DNA of 64,000 nt from an uncultured Planctomycetaceae bacterium (GTDB lineage Bacteria > Planctomycetota > Phycisphaerae > SM23-33), in assembly GCA_964642165.1 (NCBI GenBank), contig CAZXOC010000003.1, positions 784-64,783 of the forward strand, in the 5' to 3' direction. Both the position numbers and the translations under genes were made by a program. Below, piece by piece: positions 6,991-64,000 of the stretch (position 1 is the stretch's first letter; every line of letters begins with the position of its first letter). Below the pieces are notes generated by a model. The model ran no database searches. It was given only the letters and a program-made list of their open reading frames with translations, and was not told where the DNA came from.

Positions 6991-7124
6991 GTCACCCCGA
7001 TTCGCCCCGGCGCGGGCGGTTTCCCCTTGGGCCTTCGGTGGTCCGCCCCTGGACGAGGGTTTTTCCCGACGGCCGGTGAGTGTACCGTAGTGGCCGTCAT
7101 CGACGAGAGAGGAAGGATGAAGCC

Positions 7125-8843
7125 ATGACCGACAAGAAGGACGACCCGGGCGGCTCGGGCCACCGCGGCTACGCCGACCTGACCGGCGCGCAGATCTTCA
7201 ACGAGATGCTGCTGGAAGAGGGCGTGGAGGTCCTCTTCGGCTTTCCGGGCGGGGCGGTGATTCCGATTTTCGACGTCCTGTACGACTCGCCGCTGAAGTT
7301 CGTGATGTCGCGGCACGAGCAGGGCGCCTGTCACATGGCCGACGGGTACGCCCGCTCGACGGGCAAGACGGGCGCGGTGATCGCCACCAGCGGGCCCGGG
7401 GCGACGAACCTGATCACCGGGCTGGCGACGGCGAACATGGACTCGGTGCCTCTGGTGGCCTTCACGGGCCAGGTCCGCAGCCAGTTGATCGGCAACGACG
7501 CCTTCCAGGAGGCGGACACGACGGGCATCACGCGCCCGATCACGAAGCACAACTTCCTGGTGACGCGCGTGGAGGACCTCGGCCGGACCGTCAAGGAGGC
7601 GTTCCACATCGCCCGGACCGGTCGGCCCGGGCCGGTCGTGGTGGACATCGCGGTGGACGCGACGGTGAACAAGCCCGGCCGGGAACCGGCGATGGAGCCG
7701 GACCTCCCGGGCTACAAGCCGCGCGGGGGCGGTCACATCCGGCAGGTCCGCGCGGCGGCGGCGGCCATCAACGCCGCCGATCACCCGGTGCTGTACGTCG
7801 GCGGCGGCGTGGTGCTGTCGGGGGCGACGGAGGCGCTTCGCGCGGTGGCGCAGAAGGGGCGCATCCCCGTCACGACCACGCTGCTGGGGCTCGGCACGTT
7901 CGACGAGACGGACCCGCTGTCGCTGAGGATGCTGGGGATGCACGGCACGGCGTACGCGAACTACGCCGTGCAGGAGAGCGACTGCCTGGTCGCGGTGGGG
8001 GCGCGGTTCGACGACCGGGTCACCGGCAAGATCGAGGCGTTCGCCCCGAAGGCGAAGATCATCCACGTGGACATCGACCCGGCGAGCATCTCGAAGAACG
8101 TGCCGGTCGACATCCCCGTGGTGGGCGACGCGAAGTACATCCTGGAGAAGCTGCTGGAGCACCTCGAGGCGAAGGAGCGTCCGGCCTGGCACGAGCAGAT
8201 CGCGCAGTGGAAGAAGCTCTACCCGCTCAAGTACGCCCCGGACGGCGGGATCAAGCCGCAGGAGGTCGTGGAGCTCCTGGGCGAGCTGACGAGGCACGAC
8301 GCGATCGTCGCGACGGGCGTGGGACAGCACCAGATGTGGGCGGCGCAGTTCTACGGATGGCGCCGTCCGCGCCAGATCCTCACGTCGGGCGGCCTCGGCA
8401 CGATGGGCTACGGCTGCCCGGCGGCGATCGGGGCGCAGTTCGGCAACCCGGGCGCCACGGTGCTCGACATCGACGGCGACGGGAGCTTCTCGATGACGAT
8501 GGGGGAGGTGATCACGGCCGTGCAGCACGACCTGCCGGTCAAGTTCATCGTGCTGGACAACGGGTACCTCGGCATGGTGCGCCAGTGGCAGGACCTGTTC
8601 TACCACAAGCGGTACTCGGCGGTGGCGCACCCGTGTCCGGACTTCAAGATGGTGGCGGAGGGCTTCGGCGCTCGCGGCATCCGGATCTCGGCGCGGAGCG
8701 AGTTGGCCGACGGGCTGAACGAGGCGCTCAAGCACCCGGGCCCGGTGGTGGTGGCCGTCGAGGTGGAGCCGGAGGAGAACGTCTACCCGATGGTGGCGGC
8801 CGGCAAGGGCCTCCACGAAATGGACCTCGGCAAACTCGCCTGA
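7125..8843 (+). CDS. ilvB: Acetolactate synthase, large (catalytic) subunit
   Basis: RBS GAGAGGAAGG then ATG 7125. MTDKKDD..IFNEMLLEEGVEVLFGFPGGAVIPIFD..SRHEQGACHMADGYAR..GPGATNLITG; TPP-binding region GGLGTMGYGCPAAIGAQ..; about 572 aa. Confidence 0.9.
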   Translation: MTDKKDDPGGSGHRGYADLTGAQIFNEMLLEEGVEVLFGFPGGAVIPIFDVLYDSPLKFVMSRHEQGACHMADGYARSTGKTGAVIATSGPGATNLITGLATANMDSVPLVAFTGQVRSQLIGNDAFQEADTTGITRPITKHNFLVTRVEDLGRTVKEAFHIARTGRPGPVVVDIAVDATVNKPGREPAMEPDLPGYKPRGGGHIRQVRAAAAAINAADHPVLYVGGGVVLSGATEALRAVAQKGRIPVTTTLLGLGTFDETDPLSLRMLGMHGTAYANYAVQESDCLVAVGARFDDRVTGKIEAFAPKAKIIHVDIDPASISKNVPVDIPVVGDAKYILEKLLEHLEAKERPAWHEQIAQWKKLYPLKYAPDGGIKPQEVVELLGELTRHDAIVATGVGQHQMWAAQFYGWRRPRQILTSGGLGTMGYGCPAAIGAQFGNPGATVLDIDGDGSFSMTMGEVITAVQHDLPVKFIVLDNGYLGMVRQWQDLFYHKRYSAVAHPCPDFKMVAEGFGARGIRISARSELADGLNEALKHPGPVVVAVEVEPEENVYPMVAAGKGLHEMDLGKLA

Positions 8844-8867
8844 GCCGCGAAGGAGCGGAGAGCAATC

Positions 8868-9353
8868 ATGAAACACGTGATCATGGCACTGGTTCAGAAT
8901 CAGCCGGGCGTCCTGGCGCACGTGGCCGGCATGTTCGCCGCCCGCGGGTTCAACATCGATTCGCTCGTCGTCGGGCGGACGGAGGACCCGATGTTGTCGC
9001 GGATGACGATCGTGGCCGTCGGGGACGACCGCGTCCTGGAGCAGATCCGCAAGCAGTTGGAGAAGATCGTCACCGTCGTGAAGGTTCGCGACTTCCAGGA
9101 CGTCCGCTACGTCGAGCGCGACCTGATGCTGGTTCGCGTCCACGCCCCCGCGGAGAAGCGCTCGAAGGTGGTGGACCTGGTGACCCTGTTCCGCGGGCGC
9201 GTGGTGGACGTGTCGCGCAAGAGCCTCATCGTGGAGATGTCGGGCCCCGAAGACAAGCTGGAGGCGTTCGTCGACCTGGCGAAGCCCTACGGCATCGGCG
9301 AGCTGGCCCGCACCGGCGTGATCGCGATGAAGCGAGGCACGCAGGCCGACTGA
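8868..9353 (+). CDS. ilvN: Acetolactate synthase, small (regulatory, ACT-domain) subunit
   Basis: MKHVIMALVQNQPGVLAHVAGMFAARGFNIDSLVVGRTEDPMLSRMTIV (ACT domain), 161 aa, 24 nt downstream of ilvB. Confidence 0.85.
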   Translation: MKHVIMALVQNQPGVLAHVAGMFAARGFNIDSLVVGRTEDPMLSRMTIVAVGDDRVLEQIRKQLEKIVTVVKVRDFQDVRYVERDLMLVRVHAPAEKRSKVVDLVTLFRGRVVDVSRKSLIVEMSGPEDKLEAFVDLAKPYGIGELARTGVIAMKRGTQAD

Positions 9354-9410
9354 GACGAAGGGCGGATCGCCCGGGACGAGCAGCTTGGCAAGGCATAGGG
9401 AGCGACACCC

Positions 9411-10307
9411 ATGGGCGACGAGAAGGTGAAGGTGTTGTTCGACACGGACATCGGCAGCGACATCGACGACGCGGTGGCGCTGGCGTACCTGCTGAGCCAG
9501 GATCGCTGCGAGCTGCTGGGCGTCACGACCGTCACCGGCGAGCCGGAGCGGCGCGCGGAGATGGTATCGGCCATCTGCCGCCACGTCGGGCGCGACGACG
9601 TGCCGATCCACGCCGGCTGCCCGCAGGCGATGCTGATCGAGATGCGCCAGAAGACCGCCCCGCAGGCCGCGGCGCTGGGCGAGTGGGACCGGCGGAGCGA
9701 CTTCGCCGCCGGCACGGCCATCGAGTTCCTCCGCGAGACGATCCGCGCGCACCCGGGCGAGGTGACGCTGCTGGCCGTCGGGCCGCTGACCAACGTCGGC
9801 CTGCTGTTCGCGACGGACCCGGCGCTCCCGGCCATGCTGAAGCAGCTCGTCCTGATGTGCGGGCGCTTCTTCCGCGGCACGGGCGGCGAATGGAACGCCG
9901 GCGGCGACCCGCATGCCACCGCGATCGCCTACGGCAACGGCCAGCAGGCCCGCCCGCCGCGCCAAATCAGCTTCGGGCTCGACGTGACCACCCGCTGCAT
10001 GATGGACGCCGACGCCTGCCGAGAGAAGTTCGCCGCCAAGGCGCTCGAGCCCGTCCGCGACTTCGCCGAGGTCTGGTTCCGGAAGCACGACCGCATCTGC
10101 TTCCACGACCCGCTCGCCGCGGCGTGCGTCTTCCAGGGCGACCTGTGTCGGTACCGCGACGGCTGCGTCACCGTCTCCCTGACGCCGCCGACGATGGGCT
10201 GGACCGTCTTCGACGCCAGCGCCGAGGACGACCGGAAACCCCACACCGTCGCTTGCGAGGTCGATCCCGACGCCTTCTTCGCGCACTACTTCGACGTCGT
10301 GACGTGA
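9411..10307 (+). CDS. Inosine-uridine preferring nucleoside hydrolase family protein
   Basis: N-terminal aspartate cluster VLFDTDIGSDIDDAVALAYLL (DxDxxxDD fingerprint of IU-NH), about 298 aa. Confidence 0.8.
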   Translation: MGDEKVKVLFDTDIGSDIDDAVALAYLLSQDRCELLGVTTVTGEPERRAEMVSAICRHVGRDDVPIHAGCPQAMLIEMRQKTAPQAAALGEWDRRSDFAAGTAIEFLRETIRAHPGEVTLLAVGPLTNVGLLFATDPALPAMLKQLVLMCGRFFRGTGGEWNAGGDPHATAIAYGNGQQARPPRQISFGLDVTTRCMMDADACREKFAAKALEPVRDFAEVWFRKHDRICFHDPLAAACVFQGDLCRYRDGCVTVSLTPPTMGWTVFDASAEDDRKPHTVACEVDPDAFFAHYFDVVT

Positions 10308-51650: not shown

Positions 51651-51719
51651 AAGCCCGCCCGCTAAACGATGCGGTTGCGTCGCGGCGCTTGGCGGCGAGT
51701 TTAGCGGCGGGGCTTGCCC
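51647..51719. terminator. Long imperfect inverted repeat (21-bp arms, about 31-nt loop) followed on the plus strand by a polypyrimidine tract; candidate terminator for the minus-strand gene ending at 51775
   Basis: Arm gggcaagcccgcccgctaaac (51647-51667) pairs with gtttagcggcggggcttgccc (51699-51719). A CT-rich tract follows at 51725-51770. Function is inferred only from position. Confidence 0.35.
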
Positions 51720-51774
51720 CGCGCTTCCTTCTTTCCCCTCCCCGCGCTTTCTTCTTCCCCCCCTCCGCGCGTCG

Positions 51775-52863
51775 CTACGAGACGCGCGTCAGGCGGTACT
51801 TCCCGTCGCCCAGACCGACCTTGATGCACTCGGCGACCTGGATGTACGGGTCCTTGCCGTGGATCTGCCGGAGCAAATGGCCCGTGCCGCTGCGCGTCAG
51901 CGGCGGGGTCAGCGAGCCCTCGATGAAGTCCTCCTCCCGGATGAGGTCCAGGGCGGCCGTCTCGACGGCCGTGACGTCGTCCCCCGCCACGATGCCGATG
52001 TCCGGCACGACGGACGGCGTGGTGAAGCCCCAGCAGTCGCAGAACGGCGTGACGTTCAGCAGGACGGTGACGTGCAGCACGCGCCCGGGCTCGAACGTCT
52101 CCAGGCACTCGCGGACGGTCAGCGCCATGCCGTGCTGGAAATAGCGATAGCCCCGCTGGTCGATGGTGATCGCGTCGTTGGGGCAGGCGAGCTGGCAGTG
52201 CATGCAGTACTTGCAGGCGTGGTCGAAGATGCTGATCTTGCCGTCCTTGAACGAGATGGCCTCGTTGGGGCAGTTGTCGCGGCAGAGCAGGCACCCGGTG
52301 CACTTGCTGGCGTCCCACTGGAACGCCGCGCTCATGAGGCGGTGGATCTTCCCCCGCGTGGGGGCGTCGACGCAGCCCATGGCGATGTTCTTGATCGCCC
52401 CGCCGAAGCCGCTGTGCCCGTGGCCCTTGCCGTGGCTCAGCACGATCATCGCGTCGGCGTCGACGATGTTCCCGCCCAGGTTCACCGTCTTCATCGTGCG
52501 GTAGTTCGTCCGGCGCGGGTAGACGTACTTGTCCGCGACGCCCGCGACGGGCACCAGCGGCGCGCCGAGCACCTCCTCGGTGTAGCCGCGGTCCTTGGCG
52601 GTCGGCACGGCCCCGGGCACGTCGGTGAGGAAGGGCTTCCCGCCGGCGTCCCGGACGGCCTGCACCACGCGGGCCACCAGCAGCGGCGGGATCGTCGTGT
52701 ACCCGACGTGGTAGCCCAGGTGCATCTTGATGGCCACACGCTTCTTCGCGAAGCGTTTCTTCAGGCTCCACCGCGCGAGCATCTTGTCCAGCAGCTTGGG
52801 CAGCGTGGCGTCGGCGCGAAGCTCCTTCGGCCGGGCCGAGGCGAACGTCACTCTCGCGGGCAT
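51775..52863 (-). CDS. DUF362-domain iron-sulfur protein with an inserted 4Fe-4S dicluster ferredoxin motif
   Basis: CTGCLLCRDNCPNEAI and CKYCMHCQLACPNDAI (two CxxCxxCxxxCP motifs) embedded in a DUF362-like scaffold (..VAIKMHLGYHVGYTT..; ..SHGKGHGHSGFGGAIKNIAMGC..). Confidence 0.65.
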   Translation of the reverse strand: MPARVTFASARPKELRADATLPKLLDKMLARWSLKKRFAKKRVAIKMHLGYHVGYTTIPPLLVARVVQAVRDAGGKPFLTDVPGAVPTAKDRGYTEEVLGAPLVPVAGVADKYVYPRRTNYRTMKTVNLGGNIVDADAMIVLSHGKGHGHSGFGGAIKNIAMGCVDAPTRGKIHRLMSAAFQWDASKCTGCLLCRDNCPNEAISFKDGKISIFDHACKYCMHCQLACPNDAITIDQRGYRYFQHGMALTVRECLETFEPGRVLHVTVLLNVTPFCDCWGFTTPSVVPDIGIVAGDDVTAVETAALDLIREEDFIEGSLTPPLTRSGTGHLLRQIHGKDPYIQVAECIKVGLGDGKYRLTRVS

Positions 52864-52988
52864 CGGGCACTCCTCTTGAAGGGGTCGGTTGTCCGGGGTG
52901 ACCTACAGTGCCAACGATGCCCGCGCCGTGCAAGGGGAAAGGCCGCGCCCCGAGGCATGCCGCCCCGGGGCGCCACGGTCCGTCGCCG

Positions 52989-53366
52989 CTACTCCCGTGA
53001 GAGCTTCTCCGCCAGCTCGGCGATGCGGATCTCCAGACGCTTCACCTCGCGCTGGACGGCGTTGCGGTTGATGAGCATCCAGTACCAGATCTTGGTGATC
53101 GCCGCGACGATCACCGCCGTCACGAAGACCGTCGCGTAGAGGAGCATCTGCCGGTCGCCTTCCACCTGGAAGAACCGCACGGCCGCGAAGACGGCCAGGC
53201 CGCTGAACAGCAGGATGTAGATCCAGGCGACGAGGCTCATCCACCACGTCCGCCCGCGGAAGGTGCTCAGGAGCATCCCGCGGAGGGTGTCCTCGCGATC
53301 GGGGTCGTAGTCGCCGCCGTTGGCCCGGCGAAGCTCGTCTCGAAGGTCTTTCTCGAACTCGCTCAT
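52989..53366 (-). CDS. Small two-TM membrane protein downstream of the ECF sigma (possible anti-sigma / regulatory partner)
   Basis: MSEFEKDLRDELRR.. cytoplasmic N-terminus, then TM helices WWMSLVAWIYILLFSGLAVFAAV and LLYATVFVTAVIVAAITKIWYWML, then a C-terminal coiled coil. 25 nt downstream of the sigma gene. Confidence 0.45.
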   Translation of the reverse strand: MSEFEKDLRDELRRANGGDYDPDREDTLRGMLLSTFRGRTWWMSLVAWIYILLFSGLAVFAAVRFFQVEGDRQMLLYATVFVTAVIVAAITKIWYWMLINRNAVQREVKRLEIRIAELAEKLSRE

Positions 53367-53391
53367 GGTCTGTCTCCTTACCTCGAGGCCC

Positions 53392-53946
53392 TCAGCCGTC
53401 GCGCGACTGCCGGGCCTGCCAGATTCGTCTCAGCTCGTTCCGCGCGGTATGCAGACGGGACTTCACCGTCCCGGCCGGGATCGACAGAATCGCCGCGATC
53501 TCCGCGACGCCGAAGCCCTCCAGGTAGCGCAGGGACAGGATGGTTCGCTGCGGGCGGGGCAGACGTCGCAGCGCGGCCTGGAGGTCCTCGGCCTGCTCGC
53601 CGGAGTCGTCGGCGTCATCGGCCCGGGGCTCGACGGGCAGCCCCTGCTGCGAGGCCCGCCGGCGCCGGCGGTCTCGGATCCAGTTCGAGGCCTTGTTCGT
53701 GACGATGCGGAACGCCCAGCCGGCAAACCGCGCCGGGTCGTCCAGGCGACGGATGCCGCGGACGATGCTCAGCCAGGCCTCCTGGGCCACCTCCCAGGCG
53801 CCCTCCGCGTGCCCGGTCAGGCGGTAGGCGTGACGCCAGAGCCGGCGCTGCCACCGCGAGACCAGCTCGGCCAGCGCGTCGGCCTCGCCGTCCTGGCACC
53901 GCATGACGAGCAGTTCGTCGGCGAGTTGTTCCGCGGGCGTTTTCAT
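53392..53946 (-). CDS. ECF-type RNA polymerase sigma factor
   Basis: Start at MKTPAEQL (the track ORF is N-terminally extended). Region 2 (ALAELVSRWQRRLWRHAYRLTG..AWEVAQEAWLSIVRG..), region 4 HTH (LSLRYLEGFGVAEIAAILSIPAGTVKSRLHTAR). Confidence 0.75.
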   Translation of the reverse strand: MKTPAEQLADELLVMRCQDGEADALAELVSRWQRRLWRHAYRLTGHAEGAWEVAQEAWLSIVRGIRRLDDPARFAGWAFRIVTNKASNWIRDRRRRRASQQGLPVEPRADDADDSGEQAEDLQAALRRLPRPQRTILSLRYLEGFGVAEIAAILSIPAGTVKSRLHTARNELRRIWQARQSRDG

Positions 53947-54087
53947 CGTTCCAGGATGCCAGTCCGTTCCGGGGGGTCGGCGGTTCAGCCATTTTCGGCG
54001 AAATCCGCCCGGCTTGCATCCGGCGGGGGGCGCTCGCATAATCGCCCGCGCACCCGCAATCGGCTTCGGGTCAAGAGGAAGGGCGTT

Positions 54088-57000
54088 ATGTCACACGTGC
54101 GGTTATCCCATGCAGCGGCATTTGCGGCGGCGATCGGCCTCGCCGCGCGGGTCCCCGGCCCGGCGGCGGGCGCGGACGTCAAGCCGCGGATCCCCATCGG
54201 CGAGTTCACGGCCCGGCGGCTGGCCAAGGCGCCGACCGTCGACGGGCGCATCGCACCCGGCGAATGGGACGAGGCGCTGATGACGTCGGGCCTGGTCACG
54301 CCCTTCGGCCACCGGATGCACGAGGCCGAGACCACCTTCGCCTTCGGCTTCGACGACGAGCGGTTCTACTTCCTGGCCGACTGCACGCGCGGCAACCGCG
54401 AGTGGAAGCTCCACAAGAGCGCCCGCGAGAACGACGCCTACAACTTCGGCGACCCGTCCATCGAGGTCTGGGTCAGCCCGCCGACGCCCGTGGCGGAGAC
54501 GTACCAGAGCATCATCAACACGTTCCCCGCCGTCATGGACATCCGGTTCATTCCCAGCCGCGGCTACTCGGCGATGGGCTGGACCGGCCGATGGAAGCTC
54601 GGTGTGACGGAGAGCGACACGCGGTACGCCATCGAGGCGTCGATCCCGATCCGGGACTTCGGCTTCGACCGGGTTCGCGACGGCGACGTCTGGCGGCTGC
54701 TGCTGTGCCGCACCTCGCCGGGCACGAAGCCGCGCGCCCAGGCGTCGTGGTCGATCACGCAGGGCTTCAGCGAGATTGTCCAGCACCCGAAGGTGCACCT
54801 GCGGGACGACGCCCCGCTGCTCCAGCTCCACGGCGCGATCTCCATCTTCACGGGGACGTTCGACTTCCCGATGGCCGTCGCCGCGCCGCGCGGCAAGCCC
54901 GCCAAGGTCAACGTGACCCTGCGCATCCAGGCGGGGGCGCTGCCGGGCGCCGGCGACGAGGTCCTCCGCAAGTCCTGCTCGCTGAAGGCGGGCGAGCGGA
55001 AGACGTTCCGCTTGGCCGGCGACGTGACGGCGCGGAAGCGGGGGGTCTTCACGATCGCGGCCGCCACGGCCGGCGGGGAGGAGTTCTTCCGCCAGTCCTG
55101 GCCGTTCGAGGTCAACGGCTTCGTGCACCGCAAGCCCGTGCGGCCGCCGCAAGCCCCCGAGCCCGAGCCGCTGGCCCTCCGCGTCCAGTACGGCCCGGAG
55201 AGCAACGTCCTGCTGGCGAAGGCGGACATCCTGGACCTGCCCGGCCGGGAGCGGGCCGCCTCGGCCGTCCTGCGCGTCCTCGACGCGACGTCCCGGAAGG
55301 TGATCCAGGAGGCGCCGATGCCCGCCTTTCGGAACTGGCATGCCAGCGGGCACCTGGTCCTGAAGAAGCTGCGCGTGCCGGTGCTGAACGCCCCGGCCGT
55401 CGACCGGGCCGAGCGCTACAACGCGACGCTGCCCGAGGAGAACCGGCGGCGCGCGAAGAAGGGCCAGCCGCCGCTGAAGCCGCGGCCCGTCCCGGCGCCC
55501 CGGCCGCTGCCCGTCCTCGTCGAGGTCGCCGTCCGGGACGCCGACGGGAAGACCCTCCGGACCGCGTCGAAGCCGGTGGACCTGCTGCGCTACCGCTTCG
55601 AATGGTCGGACAACGACGCGGGCATCACCGACGAGGTCATCCCGCCGTGGACGCCCGTGACCTACGAGCCCCCCGGCACCGTCGGCGTGTGGAACCGCCG
55701 GATGCGCGTCAACGGCCTGGGGCTGCTGGAGGCGATCGACAACGGCGGCGCGAGCCAGGTCGAGCGGATGCGCCTCGTGGCGGTCGCCGGGGGCAAGGCG
55801 GTCGAGATCCAGCCGTCTGGCCCGTCGCTCGTCCGCCAGGTGGGCAATGCCGTGACGCTCGCCGGGACGGGTCACGGCGCCGGGCTGAGGCTCTCGGCCC
55901 GGACGCGGTTCGAGTTCGACGGCTTCGCCCTGAGCGAACTGACGATCGCCCCGGCCAACGGCGCGGGGAAGGCCCAGGTGGAGGGGCTCTACCTGGAGGT
56001 CGTCCTGCCGGAGTCGGAGGCGACGCACTTCTGCACGACGGCGGGCGGCTGGGCGGCCGTCCACGACGAAACGCCCAAGTACTGGTCCAGCCGGCAGACC
56101 GGCTCGGGGCTGCTCATCGGCGACTTCGTGCCGTACGTCTGGCTGACCAACTCGGACCGGGCCCTCGCGTGGTTCGCGGACAGCGACCGAGGCTGGATCA
56201 CCGACGACGACCGCTCGCACCCCACGCAGGAGATCGTCCGCGCCGGCGGCAAGGTCACGCTGCGCGTGCACTTCATCGAGCGTCCGGCCGAGCTGCGGCG
56301 CCCGACGACGCTCACCTACGGCTACCAGACGTTCCCATCCCGCCCGCTGCCGCCGGGGTGGCGGTCGGTCGTCTGCTCGTCGGGGCGATCCAGGTACCTG
56401 CCCAGCGGGCGGCACACGTACTTCTGGTTCGACAGCCAGGCCGACTGGGCGGTCCTCTGGCCGTACTACTGCTCGCCGTACCCCTGGAGCATGGACAAGA
56501 GCCGCCAGGCCTTCTCGCGCTTCCCGCCGGAGACGACTCACCGCCCGATGGTCGGCTCGATCGCCCACGCCGTCGCCCGCTACCGCGACTACGCCGGCCA
56601 CGAGTTCCCCGGCTACGTCGTCGACTGGGGCGCGACCCCGGGCGACCGGTCCAACGGCAACTGCACCCAGGGCCGCGGACCGAACGACTTCCGCGTCTGG
56701 CACTACCGGCAGTGGGTCCGCGAGGCGGGCTTCCGCGGGCTCTACATCGACGAGAACTACCTCTCCGCGGAGACCAACTCCCTGACCGGCGGGGCGTACC
56801 TCCGGCCGGACGGGCGGGTCCAGCGCGGCTACTCCTACCTCGGCCTGCGCGAGTACTACAAGCGGATGAAGGTGATGTTCCACCGCCACCGCGTGCCGGC
56901 GCCGAACCTGTGGATGCACGTCTCGTCGGGCGCGGCCTACCACGCCTGGCTGGGCGACGTCTTCTTCGAGGGCGAGAACGTCGAGCCGACGGACCTGGCG

Positions 57001-58128
57001 CAGGACTACCTGGCGGTCCTTCCGGCGGCGCGAATGCGGGCGATCGGCTCGGCGCGGTGCGCCGGCGGCGTGATGACCATGATGTGCCAGTCGCAGCGCC
57101 ACCGCACCGTCCACGAGCCGAAGCACACCCACCAGTTCGTCGGCTGGGTCATGGCCCACGACATCCTGCCCGAGCAGGTGCGGTTCTACGAGGTCCTCGC
57201 GCAGGAGGGGCGGCTCTACGAGGACGACGTGGAGTTCGTCGGCTACTGGAGGCCGGACTGCCCGGCCCGGACGGAGACGCCCGAGTGCCTCGTCTCCGTG
57301 CACAAGACGCCGCATCGGGCCTTGCTGTGGGTCGTCAACACGGCACGCAGGGACCAGACGGCGCACGTGAAGCTGGACTTCGCGAAGCTCGGCCTGAAGC
57401 CAGGCGGCACGGTCGCCCTGAACGCCGAGACGGGCGAGAGGCTCCCCCTCGAGGGCGACGCGCTTCGCGCGGCCGTGCGGAAGCGCGACTTCGCGGCCGT
57501 GCATCTGATCGAGCGGCGCCGGCTGAAGGCGGGCGAGAGCTTCCTCGCCACGTTCGACCACAACAGCAACGAGGCCGACGAGGCATTCGGCTCGGGCGTG
57601 TTCCAGGCGGCGGGGCGCGGGGCGAGCCGGCTCGTCCGCGTCGGCGGCCTGCGCGGCGCGGCGCTGGCGGCGGGCTTTGCGTTCTCCCCGCACCTGAGCC
57701 TCGCCGACGACGAGGGGAGCCTGAGCTTCCACGCCAAGCTGCCCGCCGAGGCGAGGGGCACGATCCTCGACGCCGGGCGCGTGCGGATCGAGATCAAGGG
57801 CGGGCGGCCGCGACAGATCGTCCTGACCGCCAACCTCACCCCCGCGAAGCGCGACCGCCGCGGGCGGCTCGTCGTCGGCAGGGACAAGGCGTTCGTCCGG
57901 ACGGTGGCCGCCGGCGCCCCGCCCGCGGGATGGCGCCGATTCCGGCTCGACTGGAAGGATGCCAAGCTGCGCCTCCGGATCGACGGAGCGGACGCCGCGA
58001 GCTGTGACTTCAAGGGCTTCGGCATCGGGCGGCCGCTCGGCAGGGACGTGACCGCCGTGCCGCCGTTCGTCTTCGAGCGCGGCGCGGAGGCCTGCGACGA
58101 GATCCGCTGCCGCCGGGACGCCGAATAG
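54088..58128 (+). CDS. Very large secreted protein (1346 aa), N-terminal CBM9/DOMON-like region; hypothetical
   Basis: RBS AAGAGGAAGG, ATG 54088. Signal peptide MSHVRLSHAAAFAAAIGLAARVPGPAAGA. Then RIPIGEFTARRLAKAPTVDGRIAPGEWDEA (CBM9-like start). Transcribed divergently from the ECF sigma 142 bp away. Confidence 0.55.
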   Translation: MSHVRLSHAAAFAAAIGLAARVPGPAAGADVKPRIPIGEFTARRLAKAPTVDGRIAPGEWDEALMTSGLVTPFGHRMHEAETTFAFGFDDERFYFLADCTRGNREWKLHKSARENDAYNFGDPSIEVWVSPPTPVAETYQSIINTFPAVMDIRFIPSRGYSAMGWTGRWKLGVTESDTRYAIEASIPIRDFGFDRVRDGDVWRLLLCRTSPGTKPRAQASWSITQGFSEIVQHPKVHLRDDAPLLQLHGAISIFTGTFDFPMAVAAPRGKPAKVNVTLRIQAGALPGAGDEVLRKSCSLKAGERKTFRLAGDVTARKRGVFTIAAATAGGEEFFRQSWPFEVNGFVHRKPVRPPQAPEPEPLALRVQYGPESNVLLAKADILDLPGRERAASAVLRVLDATSRKVIQEAPMPAFRNWHASGHLVLKKLRVPVLNAPAVDRAERYNATLPEENRRRAKKGQPPLKPRPVPAPRPLPVLVEVAVRDADGKTLRTASKPVDLLRYRFEWSDNDAGITDEVIPPWTPVTYEPPGTVGVWNRRMRVNGLGLLEAIDNGGASQVERMRLVAVAGGKAVEIQPSGPSLVRQVGNAVTLAGTGHGAGLRLSARTRFEFDGFALSELTIAPANGAGKAQVEGLYLEVVLPESEATHFCTTAGGWAAVHDETPKYWSSRQTGSGLLIGDFVPYVWLTNSDRALAWFADSDRGWITDDDRSHPTQEIVRAGGKVTLRVHFIERPAELRRPTTLTYGYQTFPSRPLPPGWRSVVCSSGRSRYLPSGRHTYFWFDSQADWAVLWPYYCSPYPWSMDKSRQAFSRFPPETTHRPMVGSIAHAVARYRDYAGHEFPGYVVDWGATPGDRSNGNCTQGRGPNDFRVWHYRQWVREAGFRGLYIDENYLSAETNSLTGGAYLRPDGRVQRGYSYLGLREYYKRMKVMFHRHRVPAPNLWMHVSSGAAYHAWLGDVFFEGENVEPTDLAQDYLAVLPAARMRAIGSARCAGGVMTMMCQSQRHRTVHEPKHTHQFVGWVMAHDILPEQVRFYEVLAQEGRLYEDDVEFVGYWRPDCPARTETPECLVSVHKTPHRALLWVVNTARRDQTAHVKLDFAKLGLKPGGTVALNAETGERLPLEGDALRAAVRKRDFAAVHLIERRRLKAGESFLATFDHNSNEADEAFGSGVFQAAGRGASRLVRVGGLRGAALAAGFAFSPHLSLADDEGSLSFHAKLPAEARGTILDAGRVRIEIKGGRPRQIVLTANLTPAKRDRRGRLVVGRDKAFVRTVAAGAPPAGWRRFRLDWKDAKLRLRIDGADAASCDFKGFGIGRPLGRDVTAVPPFVFERGAEACDEIRCRRDAE

Positions 58129-58167
58129 ACGGCGCGCCGTCGTGGCGCTTCGGGAAGGAGACTCCGG

Positions 58168-58581
58168 ATGGAAGACGTGGCACGCGTGAGGAAGCACTTC
58201 GAGACCGACGCCCTGGCGAAGCTGCTGGGCATGGAGCTGCTGGACGTCGCGCCCGGCCGCGCGACGGTCCGCATGGAGGTCCGGCCGGAACACCTCAACA
58301 CGTTCGGCACGGCCCACGGCGGGACGATCTTCGCCCTGGCGGACTACGCCTTCGAGGTCGCGGGCAACTCGCACGGCACGGTCGCCGTCGCGCTGAACGT
58401 CGACATCAGCTTCCTGAAGGCGGTCGGCCTGGAGACCATCACCGCCGAGGCGAAGGAGGTCTCCGCGGGCAACCGCGTCCGCCACTACGACATCACCGTG
58501 ACGAACGAGGCCGGCGAGGCCGTCGCCTTCTTCCACGGCATCGTCTACCGCAAGCGCGACCAGATCGCCTGGCCGGAGTGA
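58168..58581 (+). CDS. PaaI/YbgC-type hotdog-fold acyl-CoA thioesterase
   Basis: LLGMELLDVAPGRATVRMEVRPEHLNTFGTAHGGTIFALADYAFEVAGNSHG (hotdog HGG motif), 137 aa. Confidence 0.75.
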   Translation: MEDVARVRKHFETDALAKLLGMELLDVAPGRATVRMEVRPEHLNTFGTAHGGTIFALADYAFEVAGNSHGTVAVALNVDISFLKAVGLETITAEAKEVSAGNRVRHYDITVTNEAGEAVAFFHGIVYRKRDQIAWPE

Positions 58582-58609
58582 CCGCCGGCGGGGGCCGGGT
58601 CGGTCGGCA

Positions 58610-61600
58610 TCACGGGCCTTCGGGCGGGGCTGCGGGTCGGGCCGGCGGGCCCGACGGGAACGCCACGCGCACCTTCTCGCCGGCGGGGCGCCCGGTCGGG
58701 TTGGGGACCTCGAGCTCCACGGGCACGCGCCCAGTCTTGGCGTCCACCGTCGCCGAGACGCGGAGCACCTTGCCGCGAGCCGCCGGCCCCCGCCCCTCGA
58801 AGAGGACCAGGACGACCTGCCCGGGCTTGCAGTTCATGGCCCACGTGATGGGCAGGTGAGCCTGGACGCGAAGGGGGTCGTTGCCGGCCTTGACGATGCG
58901 GACGACGGGCGTCAGGGCCCGGACGGCCTCGCCGACGGAGACGAGCACGCGCTCCACGCGCCCGTCGATCGGGCTGGTCAGGCGCGTCGCCTCGAGGCGG
59001 ATCTCCGCCTCGCGGGCGCGGTGACGGCTGGCCAGGAGGTTGGCCTTGGCCAGCTCGATCTCGAGCTGGGCTGCCACGACGACGGCCTCGGCCTTCGCCA
59101 CGTCGGCCGCCGAGACCGCGGCCCTGTCGGCAAGCATCTGGACCCGCTTCAGCTCGGCGCGCGCGGCCTCAGATTTCCTGTCGGCGGCCTGAAGGTGGAT
59201 GGTGTTCTTGGCGTCGGCCATCAGGCGCGCCAGCTCCTCCCGCTGGGCTGCGTCGTCCAGGCGGACCAGCACCTGCCTCGCCTTGACGACGCTGCCCTCC
59301 CGCACGAGCACCGCGGCGACGCGACCGTCGCAGAGGAACGACAGGCTGCGCGAGTGGCCCGGCGGCAGGGCGGTGAGGGCCTCGAACCACTGCGTGCTCC
59401 AGGCGGCGACGGCCCGCCGCCGAAGGTCGCTCAACGTGGAGACGATCACCGCGCCGTTGTTGATGGCGTAGACCGGCACGTCGCCGCCTTCCTTGCCCGA
59501 CCCCGCGCCGTGGGCGTGCCGGAGGATCGTCTCGATGAGCTTGCCGGCGGGAAGGTTCCGGGCCCGAAAGGTCACACGCGTGTCGGGCCGGATACCCAGG
59601 GGCTCCAGGGCGCCCCAGACGACCTGAACGGTCACGCCGGCGTACTTGCCCACGCCTTCCAGGGCGGTCTTCAGCGGGATGTCGTCCAGGACCAGCTTGT
59701 CCGCCTTGGCATCGAGCTTCAGGCGGGTCACGGCGTCCGCCTTCGTTTTCGGAAGGGCCGTCAGCCTAACCCGGCTGCCCGGGCGGACGACCGGCGCGCG
59801 GGCGGTGCGCGGCCAGACGTCCGAGACGAACGGGGCGCTGTCGCGCTGCCCGGCGCCGGCTCCTGAGGCCGCCACCTCGCTCCGCGTGGAGACGGTCAGC
59901 ACGCCGTCCTCGACGGTGTACACCGGCTGGTCGCGTTCGTTCTTGATGTCTGCGCTGACGTACCGCAGGATCAATTCCAGCGCCTGCCGGACCGTCACCT
60001 TCCGCACGTCCACGGTGACCGGGGTGTCCGGGTCGCCGCCGGCAGCGACCAGCGCACGCCAGTTCACGTGGATATTGGCGTCCGAATACTCGCGCAGGAA
60101 CTGGAGGACGTCCTTCAGCGGGATGTCCGCGAAGCTCAGGCGGGGGATCTCCCGCGTGAGCTTCTTGCGGAGGGCGGCGTCGACCTGATGCCCCTTCCCC
60201 GGCCGGGCCGGGACTTCCCGGCCGACCCACGCTCGCTCGGGTGAGAGGTCAGACCGTGTGGATACGACGACCACGCCGTCCTCGATCGCATACCCCAGCC
60301 GGGCGTGCTTGTCCTTGATGCCGGTGCTGACGTCGCGCAGGACCAGCTCCAGCGCCCGCCGGACCGTGACCTTCCGCACGTCCACGGTGACCGGGGTGGC
60401 CGGGTCGACGCCGGCGGCGACGAGGGTCCGCCAGCGGACGTGGAGATTCGTGTCGGAGTACTCGCGCAGGAACTGGAAGACGTCCTTCAGCTCGATGTCC
60501 GCGAAGCTGAGCCTCTCGATCTCCTTGTCGAGCTTTGCGCGTGCGACGGCGTCGGGATCGGTCTTGCCCCCGCTCGGGGCCTTCGGCGTCGATGCCGTCT
60601 TGCCGCGCTTGGGCCTGGCCGCCGCCGGCTTGCCCCCGCCGGACCGACCGCCCTGGGCATTCGTCAGCGTCACCAGCCCCAAGCCGCCCAACAGCACGAT
60701 CCCCACCGCCGACCAGCGGCGCCGCTTCTGTCCGAACTGCGCGATCATCCGGATTCTCCTTCGCATCTGGTGGGTGTCTTCCGCCACCCCGACCACCCCT
60801 GCCAGGCGGGCTGGCCGGGCCAGCGACTCCAGCATCTTCAGCATCGTTCGACCGTAGCCCCGGGCATCCCGCCCGCGCGTCCGTGCCAGGACCGTCTCGT
60901 CGCAAGCCAGCTCCCGGTCGCTCCGCATTCGCCGCAGCGCCAGCCAGACCAGCGGGTTGAACCAGTGCAGCAGCGCCAGCATCGTCGCCACGTAGTCCAC
61001 CGGCACGTCCCGGCGCTTCAGGTGGGCCAGCTCGTGACGGAGAACGTGCCGCAACTCCTCAGTGCCCAGCGCGTCGGCCAAGCCCGCCGGCAGCAGCAGC
61101 CTGCGCCGCAGCAGGCCGAACAGGGCCGGAATCTCCACCGCCGTGGTCTCCAGGGCAGTCACGTGCCCCCGGACGCCCATCGCCGCCCTGCATTCCTCCA
61201 GCAGCTTGATCACCTCCGGCCGCGCGGGCGACGAGTGCCGACGCAGCCTCCGGTGGAAGCGTGCATTGGTGAGGATCAGCCGACCCAGCAGCACCGCCGC
61301 CCCGCCGGCCCACGCCAGGACCAGCAGCTCCAGCAGCGGCGCCGTCCAGGGCCGGGCTTCGCGCCCCGGCCGCGCCGGGACGGGACGGGCTCGCGGCGGG
61401 CTCGCGGCGGGTGAGGGCGCGCTATACGTTGGGGCGGCCGCCGCGCGAGGCGGCGGCAGCGGCTCCCGCGCCGCCGGCGGCTCGGGCGCCGCGGGGGACG
61501 CCAGCGCCGCCTCGGCCGCCCCCGGCGGCGGGGTGCCCTCGGTGCGCCCCTGCCGGGCCGGGGCATCGCCGTCGGCGAGCCGTACGTCCGGAGCCGCGGC

Positions 61601-61825
61601 CGAGAGCGCCGGTAGGTTGAAGACGCTCCACGGCGCCCGCGGCGCCGTCGGCAGCGCCAGCCGAATCAGCACGAGCAGCCACAGCGCGTAGCGCCAGCGG
61701 CCGGGCAGCCGCCGGCCCAGAAGCCCCTGCACCGCCAGCACCAGCACGATCAGCACCGACGCCTGGAGCGACGACTGCCCCAGCCACGCCATCCATCCCC
61801 GCGAGTAGTCCCATAGGTCGGCCAT
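58610..61825 (-). CDS. M56-family (BlaR1/MecR1-like) membrane metallopeptidase fused to three STN domains and a C-terminal HlyD/membrane-fusion-protein-like domain
   Basis: RBS AGGAG before ATG 61825 (MADLWDYS..). N-terminal TM helices (SLQASVLIVLVLAV.., RWRYALWLLVLIRLALP). Zinc motif HELAHLKRRD (HExxH). Three repeats of ..LSFADI(E/P)LKDV(F/L)QFLREYSD.N.HV.WR..VTVDVRKVTVR.ALEL(V/I)LR.. (STN-like). A coiled coil plus LTSPIDGRVERV (HlyD beta-barrel-like). The first 70 codons of the track ORF are spurious. Confidence 0.65.
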   Translation of the reverse strand: MADLWDYSRGWMAWLGQSSLQASVLIVLVLAVQGLLGRRLPGRWRYALWLLVLIRLALPTAPRAPWSVFNLPALSAAAPDVRLADGDAPARQGRTEGTPPPGAAEAALASPAAPEPPAAREPLPPPRAAAAPTYSAPSPAASPPRARPVPARPGREARPWTAPLLELLVLAWAGGAAVLLGRLILTNARFHRRLRRHSSPARPEVIKLLEECRAAMGVRGHVTALETTAVEIPALFGLLRRRLLLPAGLADALGTEELRHVLRHELAHLKRRDVPVDYVATMLALLHWFNPLVWLALRRMRSDRELACDETVLARTRGRDARGYGRTMLKMLESLARPARLAGVVGVAEDTHQMRRRIRMIAQFGQKRRRWSAVGIVLLGGLGLVTLTNAQGGRSGGGKPAAARPKRGKTASTPKAPSGGKTDPDAVARAKLDKEIERLSFADIELKDVFQFLREYSDTNLHVRWRTLVAAGVDPATPVTVDVRKVTVRRALELVLRDVSTGIKDKHARLGYAIEDGVVVVSTRSDLSPERAWVGREVPARPGKGHQVDAALRKKLTREIPRLSFADIPLKDVLQFLREYSDANIHVNWRALVAAGGDPDTPVTVDVRKVTVRQALELILRYVSADIKNERDQPVYTVEDGVLTVSTRSEVAASGAGAGQRDSAPFVSDVWPRTARAPVVRPGSRVRLTALPKTKADAVTRLKLDAKADKLVLDDIPLKTALEGVGKYAGVTVQVVWGALEPLGIRPDTRVTFRARNLPAGKLIETILRHAHGAGSGKEGGDVPVYAINNGAVIVSTLSDLRRRAVAAWSTQWFEALTALPPGHSRSLSFLCDGRVAAVLVREGSVVKARQVLVRLDDAAQREELARLMADAKNTIHLQAADRKSEAARAELKRVQMLADRAAVSAADVAKAEAVVVAAQLEIELAKANLLASRHRAREAEIRLEATRLTSPIDGRVERVLVSVGEAVRALTPVVRIVKAGNDPLRVQAHLPITWAMNCKPGQVVLVLFEGRGPAARGKVLRVSATVDAKTGRVPVELEVPNPTGRPAGEKVRVAFPSGPPARPAAPPEGP

Positions 61826-61913
61826 GCTCGGCACTCCTACAGCTTCTCGACCTGTCCGCCTCTCGCCGGCCGGGGGCGATGCGGTCACGCCCCGGTCGGC
61901 GTCCCGTGGCCGC

Positions 61914-64000
61914 TCAGAAGGCGGCCTTCCCTTTCTCCTCCGAGGAGACCACCCTCGGCTTGATGAGCAGCAGCGTCTCGTCGCCGCGGCGTGCGGCATC
62001 GGCCTGGCCCCAGTCGGGCAGGCCGCGCAGCGCAAAGGTCGCCCCGTCCCGGACGCGAACGGTCGTGCAGACCTGCCGGGTCTCGATCGTCGGGAGGGCG
62101 AGCTTCAGCCCGGTGTCCGTTCCATCCGGCGCGCGGTAGGGCGGCCGCTCGACGCCGACCACCCTCGACAGGGCCGGTTGCGCCAGCAGCGTCATGTACC
62201 GGCGATCGGGCGGGAGCGTGACCCGCACGGTCAGCTCCATGCCCACCATCGAGTGCTTCACGATCGGCTCGTAGGTCGTCTTGCCTTCCTTGTCGCGCCG
62301 GGCGGCATAGTCCGTGATGTAGGGGATCTCGCTGCCGACGGTGATGGTGGCCGGCTCGCCGTTCAGGACGATCACGCGCGGCGAGGAGAGCACGCGGACC
62401 TGCTTGTCCCGCTTCGCCTGGGCCACCAGCCGGCCGACCTGCTCGTCGGTCAGCATCGCCCAGCGGACGGCCAGCGGGCGCCGGACCGCCGATTCCGCCG
62501 TGCCGACGGCCCGTCCCTCCGCCGGCGAGCGCTTCGGCTCGGCGGGGAGCTTGAACTCCCTGCCGGGCGGGTCGAGGCCTTGCCACCTCGCCCCGATGGC
62601 GTCGAAGACCTTCGCCCGCGACGCGACGAACCTCGCGTCGATCAGGATCTGGAGACGGGCCGACCTCCGCAGGTTCCAGAGCGCCCGGGCGACCTTCCGG
62701 TGTCCGGCCGCCGTCTGCGTGACGATGACTTGGCCGTCGTGGGTCGTGAGGATGCCCGGACCGGCGGGCCTCCAGGCCTCCTCGCCGGCGGCCTCGCGGG
62801 CCGCGGCGACGAGTTCCGCCAGGCGCCGCCGCCCGGCCGCGCCTCCCGCCGCCGGACGGGTCTCCGCCGGGCTCGTCAGCAGGTCGACGACGTCGTAGAG
62901 CCGGGTGGTCAGCGTGGTGTCGTCCTCCGCCGGCGCCGGGGCCGGCGGCAGCGCCCCGCGCATCGCGCCGACCGTAAAGCCGTGCGGCAACGTCCCCTGT
63001 GGCGAATCGCAGCGGGCGTTGGTCAGGGCGGCGGCCGCCAGCAGCAGCATCACGGCGGTCCCCAGGATGCCGCGCCACCGCGAGGCGGGACGGAACGAGG
63101 CGATCATCTGGATTCTCCTTCGGATCTGCCGGGTGTCCTCGGCCACGCCGATGACGCCCGCTGGCCGCGCACGTCGCGCCGGGCTCGCCAGCAGCTCGAG
63201 GACGGTCTGCCCGTACGCCCGGGCGTCGCGGGCGCCGCGGCGCGCCAGGACGGTCTCGTCGCAGGCCGGCTCGCGGTCGCTCCGCATCCGCCGCAGCGCC
63301 AGCCACACCAGGGGGTTGAACCAGTGCACGGCGGCCAGCACGGCCGCCAGCCAGTCGATGGCGGCGTCGCCGCGCTTCACGTGCGCGAGCTCGTGACGCA
63401 AGACGTGGCGAAGCTGCGGCTCGGTCAGGGCCTCGCCCAGGCCCGGCGGCAGCAGCAGTCTCGTCCGGAGCAGCCCGAACAGCGCGGGGGTCCGGACCGC
63501 GTCCGTCTCGACCGCCTCCACGCGCCGGCGCACGTGCATCTCCGCCCGGCAGCTCGCCAGGACGGAGAGCAGCTCCCGCGGCGGGCGACGCGAGCTGCGC
63601 CGCAGCCGCCGGTGGAACCGCACGTTGCACGCCAGCAGCCTCAGGAGCAGCGCCGCGGCCCCCGCGCCCCACAAGATCATCAGCGCCCCGACGAGCTGCG
63701 GCCGCCACGCTCCGCCCGCATGGTGGCGCGGAACTTGGGCGGCGGGGGCGGGGGCAAAGCCCCCCAGCGGCAGACGGCCTGCCCGCACGGTCACCGGCTC
63801 GCCCGTGCCTGTCGCCGCGCTTCCCGGTGCGGCATCGCCGTGCGCCGCGCCCAGGTGGGCCAGCGCCGCCTCCGTCAGGTTGGACAGGCTCCACGAGGCC
63901 CCCGGGGCGGCCGGCAGCACCAGCCGCACCCACACCAGCAGCCACAGCGCGTGCCGCCACCGCGCCGAGCCTCGCCGCCCGAGCAGGCCCTGCGCCGCCA
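61914..64000 (-). CDS. Second M56-family (BlaR1-like) peptidase fused to a C-terminal secretin-like domain; 5' end beyond the window
   Basis: ..QGLLGRRGSARWRHALWLLVWVRLVLP.. (TM region) continues to the window edge. HELAHVKRGD zinc motif. C-terminus QVRVLSSPRVIVLNGEPATITVGSEIPYITDY...ETLLLIKPRVV resembles the secretin (GspD/PilQ) C-terminal domain. Stop at 61914-61916. Confidence 0.6.
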   Translation of the reverse strand, partial: AAQGLLGRRGSARWRHALWLLVWVRLVLPAAPGASWSLSNLTEAALAHLGAAHGDAAPGSAATGTGEPVTVRAGRLPLGGFAPAPAAQVPRHHAGGAWRPQLVGALMILWGAGAAALLLRLLACNVRFHRRLRRSSRRPPRELLSVLASCRAEMHVRRRVEAVETDAVRTPALFGLLRTRLLLPPGLGEALTEPQLRHVLRHELAHVKRGDAAIDWLAAVLAAVHWFNPLVWLALRRMRSDREPACDETVLARRGARDARAYGQTVLELLASPARRARPAGVIGVAEDTRQIRRRIQMIASFRPASRWRGILGTAVMLLLAAAALTNARCDSPQGTLPHGFTVGAMRGALPPAPAPAEDDTTLTTRLYDVVDLLTSPAETRPAAGGAAGRRRLAELVAAAREAAGEEAWRPAGPGILTTHDGQVIVTQTAAGHRKVARALWNLRRSARLQILIDARFVASRAKVFDAIGARWQGLDPPGREFKLPAEPKRSPAEGRAVGTAESAVRRPLAVRWAMLTDEQVGRLVAQAKRDKQVRVLSSPRVIVLNGEPATITVGSEIPYITDYAARRDKEGKTTYEPIVKHSMVGMELTVRVTLPPDRRYMTLLAQPALSRVVGVERPPYRAPDGTDTGLKLALPTIETRQVCTTVRVRDGATFALRGLPDWGQADAARRGDETLLLIKPRVVSSEEKGKAAF

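Follow-up and report, generated by a model that had tools for sequence, protein, structure and literature searches.

In the BlaR1/BlaI and MecR1/MecI systems of Staphylococcus aureus, a four-helix membrane zinc protease of the M56 family, with an HExxH motif, a downstream acidic motif and a penicillin-binding sensor, is accompanied by an upstream-encoded, autoregulated winged-helix repressor, and paired TACA/TGTA-type dyads overlap the promoter. A recent survey sorted approximately 15,000 M56 proteins into 254 architectures and found a transpeptidase domain in about 6% of the proteins, with 96% of those surveyed lying within five genes of a BlaI; TonB_C was the second commonest M56 C-terminus, and other frequent ones included Plug and CarboxypepD_reg (J Bacteriol 2026, PMC13492132). 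Thus, an M56 protein without a penicillin-binding protein (PBP) domain is the rule and no surprise. The non-canonical BlaIR systems studied include CenIR of Clostridioides difficile (PMC13492132) and PvmSR of Pseudomonas aeruginosa (bioRxiv 10.64898/2026.08.03.742534), and the BlaIR of Mycobacterium tuberculosis and M. abscessus also belong to this group. Here, we describe gene 1, a minus-strand gene close to the end of a stretch of 64,000 nucleotides (hereafter the window) from an uncultured Planctomycetaceae bacterium (NCBI GenBank assembly GCA_964642165.1, contig CAZXOC010000003.1, positions 784 to 64,783 of the forward strand). Its product joins an M56 protease to three STN (secretin/TonB short N-terminal)-like repeats and a truncated membrane fusion protein (MFP) module, and we file its locus in the non-canonical BlaIR-family class.

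Except for the penicillin-binding sensor, the features of the S. aureus systems given above are all found at this locus. In gene 1, the STN/secretin-N0-like domains and the truncated MFP take the place of the sensor. A beta-lactamase or PBP2a target is lacking, one repressor is accompanied by two paralogous sensor-proteases, and the scissile Asn of the repressor has become His. With CenIR, PvmSR and the mycobacterial BlaIR, the locus shares an M56 protein lacking a transpeptidase domain, a linked BlaI-like repressor and, presumably, a signal other than beta-lactams; however, the extracellular parts of those proteins are short, disordered or absent, whereas gene 1 carries a folded periplasmic part of approximately 680 residues.

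Gene 1 closes an operon with the order blaI, M56-secretin (gene 2), M56-STN3-MFP (gene 1). On balance, we favor the reading that the operon encodes a proteolytic switch of the BlaI/BlaR type, non-canonical and autoregulated, with two sensor-proteases; the gene 1 product would be one of them, its periplasmic part acting as a docking sensor/effector. For the components of this composite taken separately, a switch operated by BlaI cleavage appears highly probable, and a signal conveyed by docking to a secretin is a tentative and rather doubtful element. The features of the operon that lie in the window are the following.

58610..61825, minus strand: gene 1, M56-STN3-MFP, 1071 aa (stop codon 58610-58612), last in the operon
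60656..61825, minus strand: M56 membrane zinc-protease module, residues 1-390 (Pfam PF05569)
61022..61036, minus strand: HELAH zinc-binding/catalytic motif (H264, E265, H268), residues 264-268, invariant in 8 of 8 family members, aligned to HEYAH of BlaR1
60896..60913, minus strand: ELACDE motif (E305, C308, D309, E310), residues 305-310, second M56 signature, aligned to NEVEAD of BlaR1
60236..60556, minus strand: STN/secretin-N0-like repeat 1 (R1), residues 424-530, from tblastn self-matches
59870..60187, minus strand: STN/secretin-N0-like repeat 2 (R2), residues 547-652, with the best Pfam STN stretch at 601-621
59411..59737, minus strand: divergent STN-like repeat 3 (R3), residues 697-805
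58658..59383, minus strand: truncated MFP/periplasmic-adaptor module, residues 815-1056, with beta-barrel, lipoyl/barrel-sandwich hybrid (BSH) and alpha-hairpin
61826..61913, minus strand: spacer between gene 2 and gene 1, 88 bp, with an AGGAG ribosome-binding site
61914..64000, minus strand: gene 2, M56-secretin fusion, 724 aa in contig L001 (3706-5880), its first approximately 30 codons lying past the window end
about 62019-62414, minus strand: secretin core of gene 2 (Pfam Secretin)

With a GC content of approximately 72%, the window holds many spurious open reading frames on either strand, and DNA of this composition can yield long ones by chance. Nevertheless, gene 1 is an uninterrupted frame opening with an ATG at 61825, preceded 8-12 nt upstream by AGGAG, and its codon-position GC (GC1 0.74, GC2 0.54, GC3 0.90) resembles that of the other real genes of the window. 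An exact-sequence look-up of the protein returned no match, and a 99% identical variant of equal length was used in its place: P0001, from an independent metagenome assembly (ENA ERZ25073474) whose contig L001 is colinear with window positions 51717-64000 at 99.5% identity. Seven further clusters formed at 90% identity (P0002-P0008, 767-924 aa) exhibit the same order of M56, STN-like and MFP parts, which makes the fusion common to eight clusters from different samples, and each domain has significant homologs. The equal length in the independent assembly and the homologous fusions exclude a frameshift, a hidden stop and a misassembled chimera, and a chance frame or artefact of any of these kinds is left with negligible probability. 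Hence, an earlier note on this DNA, made from the sequence alone, was right in describing a single protein of 1071 aa, no frameshift or stop having been found that would separate the STN/MFP region from the rest.

Comparison of the gene 1 codons in the window and in L001 revealed 10 synonymous and 13 non-synonymous differences, numbers too small to judge selection. None of the 13 amino-acid differences affects a catalytic residue, and they cluster in linkers and in the R3 loop: five are located in the loop/hairpin of R3 (G780S, G781P, Y786H, N789D and N790G; window 59456-59488, residues 780-790) and two in the linker between R1 and R2 (G545K and H546P).

The N-terminal part of gene 1 is a member of Pfam Peptidase_M56 (PF05569; E 4.9e-58, 197.1 bits, cut-off 31). 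Residues H264, E265, H268, E305, C308, D309 and E310 are unchanged in the eight members of the family alignment, despite an overall identity of approximately 48-60%, and the ELACDE motif is presumed to carry the third zinc ligand. The sole solved structure related by sequence to this module is that of S. aureus BlaR1 (8EXP/8EXS, E 1e-6), in an alignment that spans HExxH. Both the family score and the invariant HExxH/ExxCDE residues thus agree with the M56 module described earlier. The four-helix topology proposed at the same time fared less evenly in the hydropathy profile, where transmembrane helices TM1 (~17-36), TM3 (~163-186) and TM4 (~371-389) rose above the threshold but TM2 (~45-58) was weaker, with an additional hydrophobic stretch at 279-297 following HELAH. 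The protease part lies in the cytoplasm, between TM3 and TM4. The loop between TM2 and TM3 (window 61348-61648, residues 60-160) comprises approximately 100 residues rich in Pro and Ala; its length varies and its sequence shows little conservation among family members. In S. aureus BlaR1, the corresponding extracellular loop is in contact with the sensor domain.

The repressor is located just outside the window. In L001, a Penicillinase_R gene (blaI; ATG at L001 3311, 130 aa, E 4.9e-32) heads the operon and is separated by a 2-nt spacer from the M56-secretin gene. Its start maps approximately 90 bp beyond window position 64000, so that the earlier statement that no BlaI/MecI-type repressor is adjacent was incorrect, an artefact of the window edge; calls of this kind made near a window edge are unreliable. 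Gene 2, whose frame is open to position 63998 and runs off the window, matches both Pfam M56 (E 2.6e-47) and Pfam Secretin (E 2.5e-15, 56.9 bits, cut-off 27.5). Its M56 module is a paralog of that of gene 1 (50-51% identical by BLASTP), with intact catalytic motifs. As a side observation, a polypeptide in which an inner-membrane M56 module is joined to an N-domain and a secretin core, the latter normally forming a pore in the outer membrane, would need to span the whole envelope. No promoter, operator or minus-strand terminator was found in the 88-bp spacer between genes 2 and 1, which, together with the layout of L001, indicates a single operon; the next gene after gene 1 encodes a 4HBT thioesterase and is convergent with it. 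The repressor aligns over residues 12-127 with MecI (1SD6, E 1.6e-22), and the region of the N101-F102 scissile bond of MecI is matched in it, LVLN-F corresponding to LVH-F.

The blaI promoter (TTGCCA-18-TATTAT) is overlapped by two AT-rich GATTAC-N4-GTAATC dyads (L001 3258-3297), one of them, GATTACACGTGTAGTC, within the promoter spacer and the other, GATTACAAGCGTAATC, just downstream of the -10 element. We take these dyads to represent the TACA/TGTA-type operator known for BlaI/MecI, and their conservation at the blaI promoter argues for a conventional autoregulated repressor. Indeed, the same pair precedes blaI in the related loci L002/L003, L004-6 and L007. Among 91 M56 loci fetched with 10 kb on either side (L001-L091), the motif, with at most one mismatch, was present in 49, from Verrucomicrobiota, Planctomycetota, KSB1 and Bacillota, and 82 of the 85 sites in these 1.37 Mb fell within 150 bp upstream of a BlaI-like start. 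Paired dyads start 22-26 bp apart and typically lie 400-500 bp upstream of the M56 gene. The motif thus marks blaI promoters across several phyla and could be used as a probe for regulon mapping. The sole operator found within 10 kb of the operon under study is its own, and no further site with up to two mismatches, and hence no second local member of the regulon, was detected in the 64-kb window.

The periplasmic part begins with a linker rich in Gly, Lys and Pro, after which three repeats of approximately 105 residues each are placed. R1 and R2 are 68% identical as proteins and 82% identical as DNA over 255 bp, and R3, which is 35-36% identical to either of them, is a lineage-specific insertion relative to the seven homologs, which carry two repeats only. 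Pfam STN (PF07660) scored 24.2 bits against the whole protein, below its gathering threshold of 28.4. Nevertheless, GspD-like secretins of Phycisphaerae (P0125-P0143) carry, immediately before their N-domain and secretin core (PF00263), a module with which the repeats share 55-62% identity; for secretin P0125, the values are 59% for R1 and 62% for R2. When a profile of 16 repeats was searched against the PDB, PilQ chains accounted for seven of the eight matches (3JC8, 4AR0 and 6VE2), all of them marginal (E 0.003-0.46); the aligned PilQ stretches are periplasmic N-terminal segments, taken to be N0. In the AlphaFold2 model of gene 1 (mean predicted local distance difference test score, pLDDT, 79), the repeats reach about 82-95, with R1 at ~83-92 and R3 at ~82-89, and each displays the order beta-alpha-beta-(short helix)-beta-alpha-beta-beta. 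Apart from the one inserted helix, which belongs to an insertion of approximately eight residues between beta2 and beta3, this fits what we take to be the N0/STN order, beta-alpha-beta-beta-alpha-beta-beta. A single-sequence model of isolated R2 (pLDDT 48.6) was too poor for a fold search. Taken together, the sequence and model data make the three repeats probable STN/secretin-N0-like domains, which sustains the three tandem STN domains of the earlier note in the form of STN-like domains. Compared with the N0/STN domains of PilQ and GspD, they are distinguished by the inserted residues and by their position in an inner-membrane-anchored protein that has no secretin core.

The STN-like module is widespread and mobile in the clade, being found in dozens of architectures, and column identity averages 64% when five of these are compared; such conservation suggests a shared binding partner. 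Its carriers include P0123 (921 aa), with four repeats of an STN-like plus secretin N-domain-like unit and no secretin core, P0124 (960 aa), in which the module is combined with HEAT repeats, and other proteins of 350-2300 aa.

The C-terminal module matches TIGR01730 (RND_mfp) above its cut-off (114.7 versus 94.9 bits) over residues 819-1056, covering profile positions 20-244 of 322 only, and HlyD_3, HlyD_D23 and Biotin_lipoyl_2 also match the protein. The motif LTSPIDGRVERV occupies residues 949-960, and the alpha-hairpin consists of approximately 40 + 40 residues (859-945; model helices 859-900 and 906-945). By sequence, the module matches MacA (4DK0/3FPP/5NIK, E 5e-8 to 2e-6), EmrA and AcrA; by Foldseek, it matches TMexC, EmrA, MacA, AcrA and MexA (E ~1e-12). 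The C-terminal coiled coil and beta-barrel of adaptor type noticed earlier are therefore real, but the membrane-proximal (MP) domain is missing: MacA aligned up to residue 286 of 371, and the protein ends approximately 15 residues past the barrel. Thus, the module shares beta-barrel, lipoyl/BSH and coiled-coil hairpin with the adaptors of tripartite pumps (MacA, EmrA, AcrA/MexA), but differs from them in lacking the MP domain, a lipid or single-helix anchor and a linked pump, and in being fused behind the STN repeats and the protease. An RLS-like motif (R-x3-L-x6-S) was found at the hairpin tip (RVQMLADRAAVS, residues 894-905). Motifs of the RLS type make the contact with TolC. However, an equivalent motif is present in only four of the eight family members and in none of the free STN-MFP proteins described below, so that little weight can be given to it.

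The closest free relatives of the MFP part are short MFPs of approximately 290 aa, 33-42% identical, encoded in a conserved non-efflux operon (L092 1773-7147; L093; L094 6001-7724; L095 6001-11751), near which no pump was found. In this operon, the short MFP gene is followed by genes for a DUF3467 protein, a TM-GAF-MFP protein (~640 aa) and a protein of ~725 aa. The last of these has an N-terminus resembling PqqD and an MFP domain at its C-terminus, and it contains an intramembrane HExxH metalloprotease that matches daptide_HExxH (E 9e-43) below the cut-off and M50 weakly. Membrane metalloprotease-MFP fusions have therefore arisen at least twice, with an M56 protease in gene 1 and, unrelated to it, with an M50/daptide-like HExxH protease in the short-MFP operons.

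Related loci were compared at a syntenic site defined by acylphosphatase, NTP-transferase and aminotransferase IV genes, and exhibited the following gene orders.

L089: two tandem free STN-MFP genes (530 aa each; 6349-9593), no blaI or M56; syntenic site
L002/3: free STN-MFP gene (544 aa; L002 7757-9391), then blaI, then M56-STN2-MFP; syntenic site
L007: blaI, then M56-STN2-MFP; syntenic site
L004-6: blaI, then M56-STN2-MFP; contig ends just upstream of blaI, so that synteny is not visible
window/L001: blaI, then M56-secretin, then M56-STN3-MFP; syntenic site
L008: secretin C-terminus (50% identical to gene 2), then M56-STN2-MFP

Translational coupling of the repressor gene to the M56-STN-MFP gene is seen in L002/3, L004-6 and L007, where 2 nt separate the end of the former from the start of the latter. 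The free STN-MFP proteins (530-544 aa) carry an N-terminal signal/anchor. The pair of blaI and M56-secretin also occurs alone, without M56-STN-MFP, in L090 and L091, and the M56-secretin architecture recurs with blaI in other metagenome-assembled genomes (P0010, P0012, P0025, P0074 and P0119). The M56-STN-MFP architecture is rare: it forms eight clusters at 90% identity among 5.8 billion and has three representatives at 50% identity among 1.84 billion, and it was found in one of 185,579 species-representative genomes (L009, the same metagenome-assembled genome as L002). Their source names suggest that the carriers belong to Planctomycetota/Phycisphaerae.

Taken together, these data suggest the following course of events. 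At rest, a BlaI dimer bound to the dyads would repress the operon. A periplasmic event would be transmitted through TM4 to the cytoplasmic zinc protease, which would then cleave BlaI, expectedly near LVH|FVRD, and the operon would be derepressed. The periplasmic "sensor" would not be a ligand-binding PBP, but a series of protein-docking modules borrowed from envelope machines, among which the barrel, lipoyl and hairpin parts of an MFP normally oligomerise and reach towards outer-membrane channels. Since STN and MFP modules are docking parts of such machines, the sensor is proposed to read contact with, or assembly of, a secretin complex; it would signal whether an outer-membrane complex of the secretin type is present or in what state of assembly it is, this complex being formed by the co-encoded M56-secretin where there is one, and otherwise by a housekeeping GspD-like secretin carrying the same module. 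Because the operon is the sole local BlaI target and the locus harbors free STN-MFP genes in sister lineages, the periplasmic module, once induced, probably forms part of the output as well, combining sensor and effector in one and creating positive feedback.

Several observations weigh against this reading. BlaI cleavage, signal and partner are all inferred, and the scissile Asn of MecI/BlaI is replaced by His in the repressor. Every repeat stays below the Pfam STN threshold, 15 of 16 isolated repeats matching weakly (best E 1e-4), and the arrangement of the domains relative to each other in the AlphaFold2 model is without confidence (predicted TM-score 0.40). A stand-alone STN-MFP without protease fits a role as effector at least as well as one as sensor. 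Moreover, the M56-secretin gene is absent from three of the five lineages, which means that it is no obligatory partner of gene 1.

The readings that compete with the proteolytic switch can be judged on the same evidence. An M56 module linked to a BlaI with TACA/TGTA-type dyads is what a BlaR1/MecR1 ortholog controlling a beta-lactamase would bring with it, but this classical role as beta-lactam sensor/transducer, to which we give practically no credence, is refuted at the level of domain content: profile searches revealed no transpeptidase/PBP (PF00905) or class-D-like domain in gene 1, blaR1_generic (NF000326) reached 173.9 bits against a cut-off of 400 and aligned over profile positions 104-316 of 585 only, and no beta-lactamase or PBP gene is present in the window, in L001 or in the homologous loci L002-L008. 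These results uphold the earlier suggestion that the protein does not sense beta-lactams. The accompanying idea of a different signaling or scaffold role stands only in that respect, since the linkage or coupling of blaI to the M56 gene makes it most likely that the gene 1 protein has retained the classical route by BlaI cleavage instead of following a different signaling logic; of the combination named earlier as speaking against it, a BlaI immediately outside the window with a classical beta-lactamase target, the BlaI was found but not the target. The scaffold idea itself, which we consider unlikely, would make gene 1 the periplasmic adaptor of a trans-envelope apparatus consisting of MFP tube, STN ring and gene 2 secretin pore, with the M56 module serving mainly as a four-helix membrane anchor, BlaI only setting the expression level, and the periplasmic part sensing nothing. 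It is consistent with the free STN-MFP proteins with a simple N-terminal anchor at the same locus, without BlaI and M56 in L089 and beside them in L002, with the sole local operator belonging to the operon itself, and with the clade secretin P0125 being effectively "split" between gene 1, which has its STN module (59-62%), and gene 2, which has its N-domain and secretin core (26% over 346 aa), a pairing of secretin and M56-STN-MFP that recurs in L008. However, an anchor would not need catalytic residues that are invariant across approximately 50% sequence divergence, nor does a scaffold agree with the translational coupling of blaI to the M56-STN-MFP gene in three other lineages. Furthermore, no context contains a linked inner-membrane transporter or ATPase to power a conduit, and the protein has no MP domain, the part through which adaptors contact inner-membrane pumps.

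This last absence also bears on a sensor linked to efflux, in which the MFP module would dock to a distantly encoded ABC, RND or MFS pump and a TolC-like channel, and the protease would report the substrate or load of the pump, for example a metal (cf. CusB/CopY), to BlaI. MacA, EmrA, AcrA and MexA are indeed the best matches in sequence and fold, the hairpin tip bears its RLS-like motif, and BlaI belongs to the BlaI/MecI/CopY family. Nevertheless, we regard this alternative as very unlikely: no RND, ABC or MFS transporter is linked to the MFP gene in six independent contexts, which contain no TolC gene either, and none of the compared contexts encodes a beta-lactamase, PBP, pump or TolC; the RLS-like motif is inconstant, as described; and the closest free short MFPs reside in operons with DUF3467, GAF-MFP and HExxH-protease-MFP genes. 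The repressor has no C-terminal cysteine motif of the CopY type, and a CopY-type metal repressor was accordingly rejected. Finally, the two M56 fusions and BlaI might form a self-contained secretin-based device for cell-surface signaling and assembly, which appears quite unlikely. The M56-secretin would then reach from the inner to the outer membrane, with the STN repeats and MFP tube of gene 1 docked on its periplasmic face, and engagement of the pore or passage of a substrate through it would be read by the attached proteases, leading to the destruction of BlaI and amplified production of the apparatus. If true, this would constitute a new route of signaling from the outer membrane to the cytoplasm, parallel to TonB-dependent cell-surface signaling, and the first secretin physically tethered to a signaling protease.

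The proteolytic switch with a docking sensor that we favor has partial counterparts in other envelope-signaling systems. M56-TonB fusions have been noted in Bacteroides thetaiotaomicron (TonB1/TonB10, PMC10350073). Like gene 1, the M56-TonB_C fusions of Bacteroidota combine M56 with a periplasmic domain that normally contacts an outer-membrane machine, a likeness that lends support to the idea that BlaR-type proteases are connected with the cell surface, but TonB_C binds the TonB boxes of TonB-dependent transporters, whereas gene 1 has STN/N0-like and MFP parts. In cell-surface signaling of the FecR/PupR type, which is mediated by STN domains (PMC11637429), the STN subdomain of PupR binds the signaling domain of the outer-membrane transducer PupB and controls regulated proteolysis (PMC7186176). 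An inner-membrane regulator with a periplasmic STN domain that binds the STN fold of an outer-membrane protein, leading through proteolysis to transcription, would resemble the mechanism proposed here by analogy only: gene 1 has no match to a FecR domain and its operon no pair of extracytoplasmic function (ECF) sigma and anti-sigma factors, the protease would be built into the sensor, its substrate would be a repressor, and the partner would be a secretin instead of a TonB-dependent transducer.

The M56 survey (PMC13492132) lists nine architectures with 100 entries or more, and that of gene 1 is not one of them; a full-text literature search found no paper on M56-secretin or M56-MFP fusions. 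Three things are new: M56 is combined with STN/N0-like repeats and MFP, this fusion is paired with an M56-secretin, and a single locus displays an evolutionary series. BlaI/BlaR systems are increasingly seen as general envelope-signaling devices, and almost no non-canonical sensor has a known signal; gene 1 and the co-encoded M56-secretin yield the testable hypothesis that BlaR-type proteases monitor outer-membrane machines through protein-protein contact.

A search with PADLOC gave no defence-system match for the three operon proteins. The genes between positions 51775 and 58581, mapped from L001, have no apparent link to the blaI operon; in particular, a connection with the ECF sigma factor was rejected, as its gene lies at a distance of approximately 4.5 kb and has a DUF6768 gene of its own behind it. 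These neighbors are the following.

58168-58581, plus strand: 4HBT thioesterase, convergent with gene 1
54088-58128, plus strand: 1346-aa protein with a weak GH123_N match
53392-53946, minus strand: ECF sigma factor
52989-53366, minus strand: DUF6768 gene, next after the ECF sigma gene
51775-52863, minus strand: DUF362/4Fe-4S protein

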